In this document: piece by piece, positions 1,901-6,521 of the stretch
Position numbering within the stretch: position 1 is the first letter of the stretch
Layout: every line of letters starts with the position of its first letter
Program-made: the position numbers and the translations under genes
Notes under the pieces: model-generated
The model's input: only the letters and a program-made list of their open reading frames with translations
What the model was told of the DNA's origin: nothing
The model's database searches: none
Source: a virus
Taxonomy: Duplodnaviria > Heunggongvirae > Uroviricota > Caudoviricetes
DNA: 6,521 bases
IMG/VR virus record: IMGVR_UViG_2534681674_000007
Direction: 5' to 3' (one strand)

Positions 1901-3277
1901 TCATACGTCAGCCCCTTGTGCATATCGTCTGCCACGTGCAGCGGGTGCATTTGATGTTGTGCAAATCTGTCTGGCTTCATCCTGGTCACACGCAACAAAG
2001 TGTCCGTTGCAGAACCGCTGGTAAACCGTACCAAGCGAGCCAAAACGGTTTTTCGTCACGATGATTTCAGCAAATGGCGCGGCGCTACTGTTCTCGTCAT
2101 ATACCGCTTCCCGATAGAGCATGATGATTGAGTCTGCGTCCTGCTCAATGCTTCCTGAATCACGCAAATCTGCGTTTGTCGGGCGTTTATTTGGTCGCTT
2201 CTCAACATCGCGCGAAAGCTGACTCAGGGAGATAACAGGCGTTTTCAGGTCTTTCGCCATCGCCTTCAGGCTTCCGGAGATGTGAGCAATTGCAAGGTCG
2301 TTGCGGTCTGCTTTCGGCTTCTCAATCAGGCCAAGATAATCCGCCATGATGAGTGACAGGTTTGGATTTTCCTGTTTGTGCCGTTCTGCGATTGAGCGTA
2401 TTTCTTCGACCGATAACCGCGATGCATCGACTACCCATACATCCAAATCTGCAAGCTGACTCATGCCGTTAGCAACACGCGCCCAGCCTTCGTCATCCAT
2501 CGATGCAGGATTTCGCAGCACGCTAACCGACATCCTCCCGGCGTTGGCAATGCTCCGCTCTGCAATCTGCAATGCGCTCATTTCCATTGAGAAAATCAAT
2601 ACTCCGCGCCGGACGTCAGAACCAGGAATAACGCGGCTTGCAACACCTTCGGCAATCTTCAGCGCCAGTTCGGTTTTCCCCATACCAGGACGAGCGGCGA
2701 TAATCACCAGGTCTTCCGCGTTCATCCCTCCGGTGATAGCGTCAAGTTCTTCGATTCCGGTCTTCAGGGTATCGGACTCTTCTCCGTTCCTCAGACGCCT
2801 GTCAAGCGTGTCAGTGTAGTCAGTAATGATTTCCCCTAACCGTACAGGTTTAACCTCGTCACTGGGCTTTCTGATGGCTGAAAGACGCTTTACAAGCTCA
2901 TCCATCGCCTGACTCGATGCGTCGATGGTTCCGCTCTGAATTGGTTCACGCATTTCATCCATGATTTCCAGCACCAGACGGCGGTGATAGTTATCCGCGA
3001 CCATTCCGGCATATCCCTTCAGGTTTGCGGCGCTCGGGCAGTTTTTGCTGGTCATCAGGATTGACGTGAAATGCTCCTCTCCGCACGCCTCGGCAACCAT
3101 CAGCGCGTCGATTATGTTTCTGTTTCGCGCCTGCTTGCGGATAACCTCGAAGGCTTTCCGGTAGAGCGGAATTGAAAACGCTTCCGGCTCCAGCGTTGCA
3201 AGAACGTCACTGGCGGTTGGAGTTAATCCACCAATCAGCAGGCCACCGATAACGCTCGCTTCGATATCCTGTCTCAT
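1901..3277 (-). CDS. replicative DNA helicase, DnaB family (phage P22 gene 12-like)
   Basis: 458-aa translation has DnaB hallmarks: N-terminal [13 protein letters not shown], Walker [26 protein letters not shown], and C-terminal [36 protein letters not shown] at 3277..3275 overlaps the upstream gene stop (ATGA); SD GGGGGA upstream. Confidence 0.92.
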
Positions 3278-3846
3278 GCAATCCCCCTGTCTGCAAACTT
3301 CCCTTCCCGTACTCCCGTTAACGAATCTTCCCTCAGCAGGTAATCAAAATCTGCCGTCCAGCCAGTGTCGTTGTCTCCGAAGTAAAACGGCTTGGCCTGA
3401 TGCACAAACGCCCTGACATACGCTCTGAAACCGTCCACGTTTGGCGTTTTCAGTTGTGGGATGATTTTCTTCAGGCGGCGTTTGCGTTTCTCGTTGACCG
3501 CAACAGCGTGTGGCAGTCTGTCACCGACTTCGGTGTTGTAGGCGTTCAGGAAGGATTCGTAGTCGATTCGTTCTGCCTTGCGACGTTCAGGTTTAACCTG
3601 CCCATCGCCTCCCCCATTGGGGGGTAGGGGGGTATTATTTATATTCTTGTTAATACCTTCTTGTTCATGATGTGCGGTTGTTTGTGCGGCTTCATGTGCG
3701 CTTTCATGTGCGGCATGTGCGCTGAAAGCCGCGCCATTACTGTCTTCGTCATGTGCGGCATCATGTGCGGTTGTTTGTGCGGCTTCATGTGCGGGTAAAT
3801 TGTCCATTTTTTGAGCATATTCATGGTAATTTGTGATGGTTATCAC
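3274..3846 (-). CDS. replication initiation protein, lambda O / P22 gp18-like, N-terminally truncated at the IS junction (linker plus C-terminal domain only)
   Basis: ORF opens with GTG at 3846..3844 immediately adjacent to the IS end; the in-frame stop upstream lies inside the IS terminus. The 5' third encodes AH[E/D]AA-type repeats, then an Asn/Gly/Pro-rich linker, then a C-terminal domain (..[25 protein letters not shown]..) resembling phage replication initiator C-termini. Sits immediately upstream of and translationally coupled to the helicase. The N-terminal iteron-binding domain is absent. Confidence 0.6.
3666..3795. repeat. iteron-like tandem array: about 9 copies of (C)ATGTGCG(G) at roughly 12-bp phasing, including an exact 31-bp direct repeat (3670..3700 and 3763..3793)
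   Basis: ATGTGCG at 3670, 3694, 3706, 3715, 3751, 3763, 3787 and TTGTGCG at 3683, 3776. ATGTGCGGTTGTTTGTGCGGCTTCATGTGCG is repeated exactly 93 bp apart. Lies inside the O-like gene and is followed (in the direction of O transcription) by an AT-rich tract at 3633..3655. Confidence 0.6.
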
Positions 3847-3888
3847 TGAACCGCCCCGGGTTTCCTGGAGAGTATTTTATCTGTGAAC

Positions 3889-4776
3889 TCAGGCTGCCAG
3901 ATCATTATTTCCGATGGAAGCATAATAAGCTTTTTCTGCTTCTGCCGGAGGAATATGGCCCAGCCTTTCCAGCAATCGTCGATTGTTATACCAGTCCACC
4001 CACGTTAGTGTGGCCAGTTCCACTTCTGTCCGGTTTTTCCAGCTATTACGGTGTATTACCTCCGCTTTGTAAAGACCATTGATGCTCTCAGCCATCGCGT
4101 TGTCATACGAGTCGCCAGTACTCCCTGTTGATGCCAGTAATCCGGCTTCCTTAAGCCGCTGCGTGTAGGCCAGCGATACATACTGAGAACCTTTATCACT
4201 GTGATGGATTGTGCCGGACGGCCGACGGGCCCACAACGCCTGCTCCAGTGCATCCAGCACGAATGTCGTTTCCATAGACGATGAGACTCGCCACCCCACG
4301 ATACATCCGGCAAACACATCAATGATGAACGCCACATAGACGAAGCCCTGCCATGTGCTGACGTAAGTAAAATCAGCCACCCACAGCTGGTCAGGACGTT
4401 CTGCCACGAACTGACGGTTTACGCGGTCGCCTGCGGAAACGGCTTTCCGGCTGACGGTAGTACGGACCTTTTTACCCCGGAGAACACCGGCAAGTCCCAT
4501 AACCGCCATGAGGCGCGCCACTGTACATCTGGCCACCCTGATACCTTCGCGTAACAACTGGCGCCAGACTTTACGCACACCGTACACCTGATGATTTTCA
4601 TCGTATACGCGCTGTATCTCTCTCTTCAGCCAGTCATCGTGCTGCGCACGGGCACTGCGTTTATCCGGATGATGTCGCTGTTGCTGACAATGGTAATACG
4701 TTGACGGGGCAATATGCAGTTCGCTGCATACCGGTCCGACCCCGTACTGCTCACGCAGCTTATCCAGCAGCGGCAT
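3889..4776 (-). CDS. IS629-like transposase OrfB (DDE catalytic domain, 295 aa)
   Basis: Contains the DDE triad context (..LWVADFTYV.., ..HHSDKGSQYVS.., ..DNAMAESINGLYKAE..) typical of IS3-family integrase-fold transposases. In -1 frame relative to orfA, with overlap at 4776. Confidence 0.9.
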   Translation of the reverse strand: MPLLDKLREQYGVGPVCSELHIAPSTYYHCQQQRHHPDKRSARAQHDDWLKREIQRVYDENHQVYGVRKVWRQLLREGIRVARCTVARLMAVMGLAGVLRGKKVRTTVSRKAVSAGDRVNRQFVAERPDQLWVADFTYVSTWQGFVYVAFIIDVFAGCIVGWRVSSSMETTFVLDALEQALWARRPSGTIHHSDKGSQYVSLAYTQRLKEAGLLASTGSTGDSYDNAMAESINGLYKAEVIHRNSWKNRTEVELATLTWVDWYNNRRLLERLGHIPPAEAEKAYYASIGNNDLAA

Positions 4777-5102
4777 TATTTTTTCCAGAGGCGGTCGAAC
4801 TCCGCCTTCGCAAAATAAGCGGAAGCCTGGCGAAGGATATCGTTACTGCGGCGCAGTTCACGATTTTCACGTTCCAGCTCTTTCAGACGCTGACGTTCAG
4901 CGGTGGTGAGTCCACCATCACCACTCCCGGTATCCCGCTCACGCTGACGAACCCACACACGCAGAGTCTCTGGTGTACAGCCAATCTTTGGGGCAATGGA
5001 ACAAATTGCCGCCCATTGTGAGTCATATTCGCCCTGACTTTCCAGAACCATACGAATCGCCCGCTGACGGACTTCGGGGGAAAAACGAGTATTTTTAGTC
5101 AT
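4776..5102 (-). CDS. IS629-like transposase OrfA (HTH DNA-binding subunit, 108 aa)
   Basis: [51 protein letters not shown]... with a leucine-zipper-like C-terminus ([30 protein letters not shown]), typical of IS3-family OrfA. Ends in AAA AAA TAA overlapping the orfB ATG. Confidence 0.9.
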
Positions 5103-5293
5103 CCTGTTTACCTCTTTCTCAGGGAGTTTAGTCTCCAGGATTTCCGGGGCGGTTCATTACCGATATCGATACATCAGGAATATTTGATTCAGATGATATG
5201 ACTATCAAAGCCGCCTGAGCGCGGCTTTACCGCATACCAATAATGCTTCACGAGAGGCATTTTCGTTATGCAATCAAATATAAGGAGTTACCC

Positions 5294-5428
5294 ATGATGC
5301 ACTTTCAGCTCGCGGGTAGCGGCGTCATGTCCGCTTTCTACCCGCACGAATCTGAATTATCACGCCGAGTTAAACAATTAATCAGAGCAGCAAAGAAACA
5401 ACTGGAGGCGTTATGCGCAATGAAATAG
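5294..5428 (+). CDS. small hypothetical protein (44 aa)
   Basis: ATG 5294 is preceded by TAAGGAG with a 7-nt spacer; translates MMHFQLAGSGVMSAFYPHESELSRRVKQLIRAAKKQLEALCAMK. The ORF-track upstream start at 5243 has no SD. Confidence 0.4.
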   Translation: MMHFQLAGSGVMSAFYPHESELSRRVKQLIRAAKKQLEALCAMK

Positions 5429-5565
5429 CCATTAATCACCAGATGCTTCGTGCTGCACAGAACAAAGCAGTAATAGCCCGATTTATTGGTGATTCAAAAA
5501 TGTGGCTTGAAGCAAATAAAGCGATGAAATCAGCTATCAACCTTCCGTGGTATCGCAGGAAATGA
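5413..5565 (+). CDS. small hypothetical protein (50 aa)
   Basis: Not in ORF track (<60 aa). ATG 5413 is preceded by GGAGG (4-nt spacer); translates MRNEIAINHQMLRAAQNKAVIARFIGDSKMWLEANKAMKSAINLPWYRRK; stop TGA 5563..5565. Confidence 0.4.
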   Translation: MRNEIAINHQMLRAAQNKAVIARFIGDSKMWLEANKAMKSAINLPWYRRK

Positions 5566-5720
5566 GTTTTACAGATAACTGGTCAGACGAAGAATTCATT
5601 CGTCAGATGAAAGATTTAATCGGTAACGAAGGAGATATTCATGTCACTTGCAACCACAGTGAAGGAGAGCAAGTTACAGAGACGCATGTACACGCAGAAA
5701 GCTCTCTGGTATCGCCATAA
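5562..5720 (+). CDS. small hypothetical protein (52 aa), alternative to or overlapping 5641..5811
   Basis: ATG 5562 overlaps the preceding stop (ATGA); weak SD. Translates MSFTDNWSDEEFIRQMKDLIGNEGDIHVTCNHSEGEQVTETHVHAESSLVSP. Overlaps the next candidate in a different frame, so at most one model may be fully correct. Confidence 0.3.
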   Translation: MSFTDNWSDEEFIRQMKDLIGNEGDIHVTCNHSEGEQVTETHVHAESSLVSP

Positions 5721-5811
5721 TGGCGACCGCGAAGGAATGCGGGTATGCCTTAATTTGTCCCGAGTCGAAGTATTAAATCAGCGTTATTTTCTTGGGCCAT
5801 GTCCATTCTGA
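5641..5811 (+). CDS. small hypothetical protein (56 aa), alternative to or overlapping 5562..5720
   Basis: ATG 5641 is preceded by a near-ideal SD (AAGGAG, 6-nt spacer). Translates MSLATTVKESKLQRRMYTQKALWYRHNGDREGMRVCLNLSRVEVLNQRYFLGPCPF; stop TGA 5809..5811, 8 nt before the downstream gene. Confidence 0.35.
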   Translation: MSLATTVKESKLQRRMYTQKALWYRHNGDREGMRVCLNLSRVEVLNQRYFLGPCPF

Positions 5812-5819
5812 GGTGAATT

Positions 5820-6521
5820 ATGGATTTGAACAAATTCGATGAGCCATTCAGCCCTGAAGATATCGAATGGCGAATACAGCAAAGCGGTAAAACACGCGAT
5901 GGAAAGGTGTGGGCTATGGTGCTGGCTTATGTCACGAACAGGGCAATCATGAAACGCCTGGATGATGTTTGCGGCAAAGCAGGATGGCGCAATGAATACC
6001 GCGATATTCCCAACAACGGCGGCGTTGAATGCGGCATATCAATAAAGATTGATTCCGAATGGGTAACCAAATGGGATGCTGCTGAAAACACGCAGGTAGA
6101 AGCCGTCAAAGGTGGTCGTTCCGGTGCAATGAAGCGCGCTGCCGTTCAGTGGGGAATCGGTCGGTATCTGTATAACCTTGAGGAAGGTTTCGCACAAACA
6201 TCTCTCGATAAAAAGCAGGGGTGGCACAGGGCAAAACTGAAGGATGGAACAGGATTTTACTGGCTCCCTCCATCGCTTCCGGGATGGGCAATCCCAGCAT
6301 CAGATAACAAACCATCACCAGAAAATACCAACCAGAAATCTCCATCGGTTGACTGCGAACAAATCCTGAAAGACTTCAGCGATTATGCGTCAACAGAAAC
6401 TGACAAGAAAAAACTCATCGAGCGTTATCAGCGTGACTGGCAATTAATGGCTGGCAACGAGGAAGCGCAGGCTAAATGCGTTCAGGTAATGAACATCAGA
6501 GTTAACGAACTAAAACCGTAA
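5820..6521 (+). CDS. Rad52-like single-strand annealing protein (phage Sak/Rad52 family recombinase)
   Basis: 233-aa ORF with SD AGGTGA upstream of ATG 5820. N-terminal region (..VLAYVTNRAIMKRLDDVCGKAGWRNEY.. and ..VKGGRSGAMKRAAVQWGIGRYLYNL..) follows the conserved Rad52 N-terminal-domain pattern (RLD..G..GW and a K(R)A...G(I)GRYLY-like motif). Assignment from motif recollection, not a search. Confidence 0.65.
   Translation: MDLNKFDEPFSPEDIEWRIQQSGKTRDGKVWAMVLAYVTNRAIMKRLDDVCGKAGWRNEYRDIPNNGGVECGISIKIDSEWVTKWDAAENTQVEAVKGGRSGAMKRAAVQWGIGRYLYNLEEGFAQTSLDKKQGWHRAKLKDGTGFYWLPPSLPGWAIPASDNKPSPENTNQKSPSVDCEQILKDFSDYASTETDKKKLIERYQRDWQLMAGNEEAQAKCVQVMNIRVNELKP

Follow-up and report, generated by a model that had tools for sequence, protein, structure and literature searches.

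The closest described relatives of the locus are phages of the HK97 group. HK97 (AF069529) carries the segment cIII - kil - gp42.1/gp42 - erf, and the same segment is present in HK022, HK106, mEpX2, mEp235 and Sf6 (genes 32-28). The PL segment of P22 reads terminator - c3 - kil - arf - erf. P22 Arf stimulates Erf-dependent recombination, an activity known only genetically according to the account of Poteete et al. (1991) given in PMC12315714. HK620 possesses the order cIII - kil - hkaM - sak4 (hkaL) (Hutinet et al., 2018; PMC5928155). In HK620 recombineering, SSB alone sufficed for the full stimulation of Sak4 seen with the whole module, with no sign of a role for HkaM (PMC5928155). The literature on HK97 gp42 and hkaM yielded nothing beyond Hutinet et al. 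(2018). O157:H7 genomes contain more copies of IS629 than of any other insertion sequence (IS), and prophage genes, stx2 among them, are known to be interrupted by it (PMC7430833).

The window analyzed here is the whole stretch of 6,521 nucleotides. Positions 5157-5811 hold four intact small genes on the + strand: cIII, kil, gene A and gene B. With high probability, this region represents the intact distal part of the early-left (PL) operon of an HK97/mEpX2/Sf6-type lambdoid prophage, in which promoter, N and repressor were lost via an IS629-associated deletion and in which A and B are both genuine. The locus is an ordinary decaying prophage. As a routine case of IS-associated inactivation by deletion in a lambdoid prophage, it has little biological importance, and the four small genes are all known biology, already present in phage records and PHROG families.

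Organization of the gene cluster

The following features were assigned:

3847-5156, - strand: IS629/IS1203 (IS3 family), 1310 bp, assigned by inverted repeats, frameshift pseudoknot and identity to the copy in the reference locus L001
5158-5218, + strand: 3' remnant of a DUF2528 gene (ea10 position), 19 codons and stop, truncated by the IS
5207-5228, + strand: hairpin 1 (AAAGCCGC-CTGAGC-GCGGCTTT) at the tL2A position, minimum free energy stem in the fold of 5195-5300 (z = -3.2)
5242-5271, + strand: hairpin 2 (AATGCTTC-ACGA-GAGGCATT), stem 5242-5261 with T-rich tail, the sole + strand terminator-like site in the scan
5294-5428, + strand: cIII (44 aa), PF08134, phrog_550, Shine-Dalgarno (SD) site AAGGAG at 5282-5287
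5413-5565, + strand: kil (50 aa), PF06301, phrog_2055 (E 1e-35), GGAGG 7 nt upstream
5562-5720, + strand: gene A (52 aa), Arf-like, phrog_2123
5629-5634, + strand: SD site AAGGAG of gene B inside gene A, read from the sequence, 6 nt before the ATG at 5641
5641-5811, + strand: gene B (56 aa), HkaM-like helical hairpin, phrog_1723
5820-6521, + strand: Rad52/Rad22-type single-strand annealing protein, PF04098 (E 4.9e-26), phrog_1097 (E 4e-129)

The order is thus DUF2528 gene tail, two tL2-type hairpins, cIII, kil, A, B and the Rad52-like annealing-protein gene, the latter being the first gene of the recombination module. An earlier note on this DNA had listed + strand ORFs of 44, 50, 52 and 56 aa, all of which are present at the coordinates above. 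It had also placed them in the PL operon upstream of the annealing protein. This position is borne out by the same gene order, as annotated in HK97, mEpX2, P22 and HK620. The four ORFs lie far beyond chance: curated Pfam families are matched by cIII (E 2e-30) and kil (E 1.7e-20), and full-length PHROG matches exist for A (E 1e-41) and B (E 9e-36). Pfam contains no family for A or B. A NCBIfam search with the five cluster proteins gave no meaningful match. No RNA family was found by Rfam in 5157-5811; the only match in the window was the frameshift pseudoknot of the IS. With overlaps or couplings from cIII through kil, A and B to the annealing gene, the cluster would form a single translationally linked train.

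The CIII protein matches PF08134 over the complete model (positions 1-37 of 37, 104.7 bits, cutoff 25) and is identical to HK97 CIII. By family membership, it would be an FtsH-inhibitory lysogeny factor. The PGAP and HK97 annotations place cIII at the same coordinates as the 44-aa model, which has the AAGGAG site and the end-to-end Pfam match. An ATG at 5243 provides an alternative start for a 61-aa cIII and is used in one GenBank record. Directly downstream and with a 16-nt overlap follows kil, in the same layout as in HK97, mEpX2 and HK620. Its product scores 72.6 bits against PF06301 (cutoff 27.6), is identical to HK97 Kil and, as a family member, would be a host cell-division inhibitor. 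Analogues of kil, gam and cIII had been expected at this place. The cIII and kil genes themselves were found, encoding the HK97-identical proteins, while a gam analogue is absent from 5157-5811.

IS629 and the loss of the immunity region

The IS carries terminal inverted repeats TGAACCGCCCCGG at both ends and an ALIL frameshift pseudoknot (RF01497, E 1e-31). Its orfA (4776-5102, 108 aa) and orfB (3889-4776, 295 aa) are both located on the - strand, and the end with the orfA start abuts the cluster. The copy in L001 is 99.2% identical to this element over 1311 nt. With CAC on one side and TTA on the other, the flanking triplets show no target duplication. This fits an IS-associated deletion or a recombination between two copies, not a simple insertion.

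The intact prophage of E. coli 2013C-4974 (L001) served as comparison reference. Identity to L001 is 100% on both flanks, at window positions 2776-3846 (L001 1-1071; 1,071 nt) and 5156-6516 (L001 7001-8361; 1,361 nt); the annealing-protein gene is included up to position 6516. Between these flanks, 5,929 bp of the intact prophage are replaced by IS629. The lost DNA comprises the 5' end of the O gene, cII, cro, a cI-type (LexA-family) repressor, a kinase, N and most of the DUF2528 gene. Since N and the immunity genes lie within it, PL and nutL are lost too. The 5.9-kb IS629-associated deletion removed PR, PL, nutL, N and the repressor. The gap supports the earlier statement that PL and N are deleted. 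The DUF2528 remnant translates into TDIDTSGIFDSDDMTIKAA*, with which the 122-aa DUF2528 protein of L001 ends. The deletion is recent, as the 100% identical flanks show, and this explains the intact state of the cluster genes. Full-window and junction searches found the exact IS-cluster junction in none of 5,426 complete E. coli genomes.

Gene A

Gene A, small and acidic, lies between kil and the gene of the annealing protein and is coupled translationally, which is an Arf-type position. Its start codon and the kil stop share the ATGA at 5562-5565. The N-terminal core, MSFTDNWSDEEFIRQMKDLIGNEGD, is conserved; the acidic tail behind it varies, contains no K or R and reaches 80 nt into B. The function of A would reside in the 25-residue N-terminal core, and the tail would merely run through the B start to the first stop permitted by the B codons. 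The alignment with P22 Arf is weak (hhalign probability 23%, E 9e-4, 18 columns, 44% identity around SDEEFI). One nr record names an 88%-identical relative of A 'accessory recombination function protein'.

The overlap of genes A and B

A and B overlap by 80 nt, with B in the +1 frame relative to A. The ATGA coupling and the near-ideal AAGGAG of the second ORF, both noticed earlier, were confirmed. For B, a genome-contig scan provided 7 loci and a first viral-contig scan 80 loci, the latter 80 with B proteins all identical. Diversity was gained by querying with divergent B proteins, and B was found at 126 loci in total. The codon-position test used 63 distinct haplotypes. Variable columns at A codon positions 1/2/3 numbered 7/7/19 in the 79 nt before B, 22/15/10 in the overlap, which equals B positions 3/1/2, and 26/14/6 after the overlap. 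Chi-square p values were 4e-4, 2e-3 and 3e-6, respectively; they overstate independence, as the sequences are related. Third-position variation thus follows frame A until the B start and frame B thereafter. The A core had a pN/pS ratio of 0.41 (1.3-1.4 for the other frames) and the A tail one of 1.66. For B, the ratio was 0.33 within the overlap and 0.13 beyond it. These patterns indicate that A and B are both real genes and that only the B frame is under purifying selection within the overlap. The gene models, previously regarded as ambiguous, are resolved by the codon-position variation in favor of both. The proposed comparison of synonymous and nonsynonymous change identified selection on the B frame and not on the A frame of the overlap, while the A core outside is selected.

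The length of the overlap is 80, 86, 92 or 137 nt depending on the lineage, at constant B protein. Resampling of B codons with the B protein fixed introduced an A-frame stop before 80 nt in 38-58% of trials and left the frame open for at least 80 nt in 42-62%. Lineages containing A have no stop before 80 nt of overlap, while stops occur at 14, 23 and 32 nt in lineages without A; independent lineages are few in this comparison. Some length constraint on the A tail is possible.

Two other readings of the overlap were weighed. B alone might be a gene, with A a chance open frame maintained by the codon content of B together with a leader upstream of B. The A frame indeed looks non-coding in the overlap, it stays open in about half of the resamplings as given above, B exists without A, PGAP annotates neither gene and many records only B. 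Yet the 79 nt before B are periodic in the A frame and selected there, and the A ORF is open in Enterobacter-type phages, in which the core remains recognizable at 37-47% identity. Every A indel is in frame: phiKp_30 lacks 5 aa, one lineage lacks 1 aa, and P0036 has an inserted 14-aa repeat (EFIRQMK x2). The ATGA coupling survives a change of the upstream gene, and in SEN22 the A core recurs with a different tail and without B. An A frame open by chance is therefore very improbable. Scarcely credible is a single 82-83-aa gene like HK97 gp42.1, from which the window would deviate by a frameshift or which would be translated by programmed +1 ribosomal frameshifting. The HK97 GenBank record shows a single 83-aa ORF across A and B, and sequence databases contain several A-B fusion proteins of 82 aa. 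But HK97 is the sole fused case among the 126 B loci and owes the fusion to two additional bases 7 nt apart. Fusions in the databases are rare, in clusters of 1-4 members versus up to 511 and 201 for the largest clusters of the separate forms, and their junctions lie at many differing positions, as sporadic 1-nt deletions or assembly errors would give. B also has its own ATG and strong SD site and stands by itself as a 56-aa gene in lineages lacking A, and the A tail is unconstrained and variable in length.

A single uninterrupted A-B frame of the gp42.1 type was rejected, the window and 125 of the 126 B loci being two-framed. A programmed frameshift pair was likewise discarded, on the pN/pS of 1.66 for the A frame in the overlap and on a B that starts from its own signals and occurs alone. 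With A and B as two genes, both should be called in annotations. Present records are inconsistent and contain A, B, both, neither or a fusion, because the 80-nt same-strand overlap exceeds the limit of common gene callers. In Prodigal, this limit is 60 nt. The fused gp42.1 model of HK97 is an exception that needs resequencing.

Gene B

Ungapped 56-aa homologues of B extend down to 48% identity. The C-terminal FLGxxPF is invariant, including P55 and F56. An equivalent SD site, GAAGGAGG, is retained in the Enterobacter-type lineage, where it encodes SEGG. The B stop overlaps the SD site of the annealing-protein gene (TGAGGTG). Alignment with HK620 HkaM by hhalign gave 95.6% probability (E 1e-8, 51 columns), and a profile search of 1.84 billion representatives returned 56-60-aa proteins of the same type. 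Together, phrog_1723 and HK620 HkaM form a set of 56-62-aa proteins with a C-terminal FLGxxPF (FLS...LPF in HkaM), encoded immediately upstream of the first recombination gene. The AlphaFold2 model of B (pLDDT 93) predicts helices at 7-27 and 30-51. A Foldseek search of the model against PDB found generic helical hairpins only, none at E <= 0.001.

B occurs without A in Salmonella, Erwinia and other lineages. At every locus with an identified downstream gene, it is located 2-17 nt before that gene, which encodes a Rad52-like protein, Erf (two types), Sak4-like AAA_24 (two types) or HNH plus Erf, with the junction exactly at the B stop. Judged from these alignments and positions, B is a distant homologue of HK620 HkaM that stands directly before the recombinase, whatever its family. 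It would be a separate and more widely conserved helical-hairpin protein than A, marking the junction where recombinase modules swap. A link is hereby drawn between phrog_1723 and HK620 HkaM, and the B stop codon is identified as swap point of the recombinase modules.

The tip of bacterial SSB ends in ...DDDIPF, and the terminal Pro-Phe of B resembles it. B might, as a distinctly improbable option, represent a narrow HkaM-related family of adaptors or decoys docking onto host repair proteins or the phage annealing protein at their pockets for SSB tails. If true, this would give B a recombinase-independent accessory role, assigned by no one so far. The B tail is not acidic. The conserved 3' end of B could instead stem from the ribosome binding site of the next gene or from a recombination 'linker'.

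Terminator-type hairpins and expression

Both hairpins fold stably (z = -3.2) and are found at positions of terminators annotated upstream of cIII in P22, HK97 and HK620. Hairpin 1 has a strong stem and only three T residues after the G+C core. In P22, the same stem is followed by TTTTT and annotated as terminator; HK97, HK620 and an Enterobacter phage carry different G+C stems with a T-run at the same aligned position. Hairpin 2 consists of 8 pairs, three of them G-C, and aligns with the HK620 feature annotated as tL2B. Given so short a T-run in hairpin 1 and so few G-C pairs in hairpin 2, the putative termination may be leaky. The literature on tL2 contained nothing usable.

A consensus scan of 5157-5293 detected no sigma-70-like site on the + strand, weak, non-canonical or alternative-sigma promoters being outside its reach. 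The earlier note had likewise found no convincing sigma70 pair there and had suggested read-out of the IS or a cryptic promoter. The former is less likely, since the transposase points away and two hairpins lie between; for the latter, 5157-5293 offers no promoter-like site. A promoter-like match is located inside gene A (TTTACA-16-AAGAAT, 5568-5595, 9 of 12). Expression of B and the annealing protein from this match is conceivable, yet the 2 matches found in the region versus 1.6 expected are at chance level. In the intact phage, the cluster would be transcribed from PL by an N-modified polymerase reading past the terminators, by analogy with lambda, P22 and HK620. Here, it would be left promoterless behind two terminator-type hairpins, with the IS transposase transcribed away. 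The cluster is probably silent or barely expressed, because of the lack of a + strand promoter-like site in 5157-5293, the two hairpins and the direction of the transposase. Silence would also fit the harm of unrepressed Kil to the host.

Alternatively, the cluster could be expressed from an IS-flank hybrid, a cryptic or an internal promoter and be kept as a domesticated module benefiting the host. IS3-family elements can create junction promoters. The 9-of-12 match inside A and the intactness of all five ORFs (cIII, kil, A, B and the annealing protein) agree with this, but intactness is explained by recency, the flanks being 100% identical over 1,071 and 1,361 nt. Moreover, the IS faces the cluster with the end upstream of orfA, and the orfA promoter is directed into the element, away from the cluster. 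In IS3-family elements, the outward -35 is situated at the other end. N and nutL are gone, and both hairpins separate the IS from a cluster that lacks a + strand site in 5157-5293. Transcripts were detected downstream of IS629 in the O157:H7 stx2::IS629 prophage (PMC7430833), but that case concerns strong antiterminated late transcription from upstream, which has no counterpart here. The absence of the junction from the 5,426 complete E. coli genomes means that the arrangement is neither fixed nor widespread. Domestication is consequently unlikely, and a disabled, mostly silent prophage segment remains the preferred reading.

Comparison with known phages

Cryptic lambdoid prophages of STEC/EHEC inactivated by IS629 have the element in prophage genes (stx2). 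In the window, IS629 lacks a target duplication and replaces the immunity region; its particular junction occurs in none of the complete E. coli genomes searched.

The PL segment of P22 has the same order as the window, with a small acidic ORF before the annealing protein, and the terminator after gene 17 shares its stem with hairpin 1. P22 Arf and A both combine an N-terminal [F/W]SDEEFI motif with an acidic tail, a similarity that is not statistically secure (hhalign 23%). The C3 and Kil proteins of P22 are of different sequence types. Gene B is missing from P22, where arf and erf are directly coupled by ATGA.

In HK620, HkaM occupies the position of B directly before the recombinase. HkaM and B have the same ...CCATTCTGAGG junction and a C-terminal PF, and hairpins of the tL2A/tL2B type precede cIII as in the window. 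HK620 differs by the absence of A, by Sak4 as recombinase and by the 62-aa length of HkaM.

The HK97 group has the same gene order, and its DNA is 93-98% identical to the window from cIII to B. These phages retain PL, N and the immunity region upstream, where the window has IS629. HK97 itself deviates from the window by the two extra bases that fuse A and B and by Erf in place of the Rad52-like annealing protein. The Rad52-like gene of the window is found downstream in mEpX2, mEp235 and Sf6, and mEpX2 and Sf6 possess the same two overlapping ORFs A and B.

Gene content and loss of the upstream region

The cluster (5157-5811) lies between an IS629 element and the gene of an annealing protein. 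An ORF listing and direct reading agree with the small plus-strand ORFs that an earlier note had read from the sequence in this interval.

Features of the cluster and its flanks
3847-5156, orfA and orfB on the minus strand: IS629/IS1203, 1310 bp, with matching terminal repeats and an ALIL frameshift pseudoknot
5208-5179, minus strand: promoter-like site TTGATA-18-AATATT (9 of 12), pointing into IS629 towards orfA
5207-5228, plus strand: hairpin 1, shares its stem with the P22 terminator that follows gene 17, but has only three T residues behind it
5242-5261, plus strand: hairpin 2, T-rich tail, aligns with HK620 tL2B
5294-5428, plus strand: cIII, 44 aa (Pfam PF08134, E 2e-30)
5413-5565, plus strand: kil, 50 aa (Pfam PF06301, E 1.7e-20)
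5562-5720, plus strand: gene A, 52 aa (phrog_2123, full-length match, E 1e-41)
5641-5811, plus strand: gene B, 56 aa (phrog_1723, full-length match, E 9e-36)
Downstream of B: gene of a Rad52/Rad22-type annealing protein (Pfam PF04098)

The cIII and kil products are identical in sequence to CIII and Kil of HK97. Direct reading also located the translational signals reported before: the ATGA at 5562-5565 is common to the kil stop and the A start, and an AAGGAG (5629-5634) precedes the ATG of B at 5641 by 6 nt. B overlaps A by 80 nt in the +1 frame.

In the alignment, 2776-3846 and 5156-6516 of the window match the closest intact prophage relative, in E. coli 2013C-4974 (L001), at 100% identity. 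Between these flanks, the relative contains 5,929 bp that are missing here. The missing segment comprises the 5' end of gene O, the regulators cII, cro, a LexA-family repressor and N, a DUF3024 gene, a Ser/Thr kinase gene, and most of a DUF2528 gene, whose final 19 codons and stop persist at 5158-5218. Thus PL, nutL and N are gone, in line with the deletion of PL and N suspected earlier. No target-site duplication was found around IS629 (flanks CAC, 3844-3846, and TTA, 5157-5159). This agrees with an IS-associated deletion or with recombination between IS copies, not with a simple insertion. The exact IS629/cluster junction occurred in none of 5,426 complete E. coli genomes.

A truncated O-like replication gene (3274-3846, minus strand) now adjoins the other IS629 end. 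L001 harbors an IS629 copy of its own (9119-10429, 99.2% identical), which sits in the exonuclease gene of this prophage; in the annotation, the DnaB-like helicase gene of L001 is incomplete and lacks the C-terminus. IS activity therefore seems frequent in this prophage lineage. In E. coli O157:H7 F8798 (NZ_CP038351.1, 1786213-1786474), an IS1203/IS629 element is likewise inserted in this DUF2528 gene, but at another site.

At the right edge, the homology to L001 ends at 6516, 11 nt short of the normal stop of the annealing protein. The window ends with ...AAAAC|CGTAA (protein ..ELKP*), L001 continues with ...AAAAC|AGGCGGCATAA (..ELKQAA*). Positions 6517-6521 may stem from another rearrangement or mark a mosaic junction.

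Coding in the overlap of A and B

Phage records as well as viral and genome contigs yielded 133 loci. The codon test used 63 distinct haplotypes with A in the same register, and variable columns were sorted by codon position.

Variable columns by codon position and pN/pS (63 haplotypes)
79 nt before the B start: A positions 1/2/3 = 7/7/19, chi-square p 4e-4; pN/pS 0.41 in the A frame, 1.3-1.4 in the other two frames
80-nt overlap: A positions 1/2/3 = 22/15/10 (B positions 3/1/2), chi-square p 2e-3; pN/pS 0.33 in the B frame, 1.66 in the A frame
After the overlap: A positions 1/2/3 = 26/14/6 (B positions 3/1/2), chi-square p 3e-6; pN/pS 0.13 in the B frame

The coding signal changes from A to B precisely at the start codon of B. 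Both overlapping ORFs noted before are therefore genes, and the supposed ambiguity of frame is resolved: the signal follows A up to the B start and B from there. In keeping with this, B proteins of close relatives are identical and A tails differ, with A/B overlaps of 80, 86, 92 or 137 nt. Indels in A are in-frame only, and Enterobacter-type phages (MSIADTWSEDAFVRLMQDLIGSEGG) retain its 25-residue core with 37-47% identity. B is ungapped at 56 aa down to 48% identity, and Salmonella, Erwinia and other lineages have B but no A. When synonymous B codons were resampled, the A frame closed early in 38-58% of trials; lineages lacking A have stops at 14, 23 and 32 nt and A-containing lineages none before 80 nt, few of these lineages being independent. 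The tail of A appears to be a passenger of B, though its length may be under selection, and both genes should be annotated.

In the HK97 record (AF069529), two extra bases in the overlap (C and G, 7 nt apart, 2960-2970) relative to the window and mEpX2 join the A frame to the C-terminal part of B. The outcome is gp42.1, annotated with 83 aa, inside which gp42 starts. HK97 is the sole fused locus among 126 in which B was found, and 82-aa database proteins matching both A and B are rare, with junctions at many different positions. A single A-B gene or a programmed frameshift is therefore unlikely. Sporadic 1-nt deletions or errors of assembly would scatter the junctions in this way; gp42.1 is an outlier, its extra bases being either a sequencing error of the original record or a strain-specific frameshift.

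Expression

A consensus scan detected no plus-strand sigma-70-like site in 5157-5293, confirming the lack of a convincing promoter claimed before. Across 4950-5900, two sites were found versus 1.6 expected, which is chance level; one is the minus-strand site at 5208-5179, the other lies inside gene A. Two stable hairpins form in the fold of the 106 nt ahead of cIII (z = -3.2). At the position aligned with hairpin 1, other phages have G+C stems that differ from it, plus a T-run. In lambdoid phages, N-modified polymerase overrides such terminators; N and nutL are missing here. IS629 borders the cluster with the end that lies upstream of orfA, and transcription of the transposase therefore heads away from the cluster genes. 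The outward-facing -35 of IS3-family elements is located at the other end. Together, these features suggest that expression of the cluster is most likely absent or close to it. The polarity of IS629 is incomplete where strong antiterminated transcription enters it (PMC7430833); no upstream source of such transcription is evident here.

Comparison with related phages

A resembles P22 Arf in its [F/W]SDEEFI motif at the N-terminus, in its acidic tail and in its place in the genome. Since the profile comparison was weak (23% probability, 18 columns), "Arf-like" is a lead, not a membership. Arf helps homologous recombination without being essential to it, and its molecular function is unknown (PMC12315714). 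Salmonella phage SEN22 contains an unannotated 35-aa ORF (1201-1308, MSFTDNWSDEEFIRQMNKIINHHKEQEKDDDSDSE) with the same first 16 residues as A. The acidic tail of this ORF is unlike that of A. The ORF shows ATGA coupling to a cIII-like gene and is not followed by B.

HkaM of HK620 is a distant homologue of B (hhalign 95.6%, E 1e-8), and phrog_1723 is thus related to HkaM. Hutinet et al. described HkaM as an orphan without known function, and when they assayed recombineering, SSB by itself reproduced the stimulation by the whole module (PMC5928155). B is modeled as a confident helical hairpin (pLDDT 93), for which no informative structural neighbour was found. A profile search of 1.84 billion representatives retrieved only about 17 convincing members (56-60 aa), all ending in FLGxxPF. 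An as yet unassigned role of an HkaM-like protein with an invariant C-terminal Pro-Phe is speculative.

B is located 2-17 nt upstream of six kinds of neighbours: Rad52-like, two Erf types, two AAA_24 (Sak4-like) types, and HNH followed by Erf. The sequence breaks exactly at the B stop (5811/5812 in the window, the equivalent point in the compared loci L084-L133), which is the exchange point of Rad52-like, Erf, AAA_24 (Sak4-like) and HNH modules. Even HK620 hkaM, with a protein identity of just 32%, keeps the motif CC[AGC]TTCT[GA]A. Matches to the window also begin at the first base of A or stop at the last base of B; hence A and B behave as a mosaic unit ending the cIII-kil block.

By megablast, the 0.7-kb segment is present in 2,141 of 5,426 complete E. 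coli genomes and matched in 291 phage records, including HK97, HK022, HK106, mEpX2, mEp235, Sf6 and Stx phages. The order cIII-kil-small ORF(s)-annealing protein recurs in annotated records; it reads terminator-c3-kil-arf-erf in P22 and tL2A/tL2B-cIII-kil-hkaM-sak4 in HK620. The cluster represents the usual distal part of the PL operon in an HK97/mEpX2/Sf6-type prophage, and an IS629-associated deletion has orphaned it. Its genes are already known and catalogued, as is such prophage decay.
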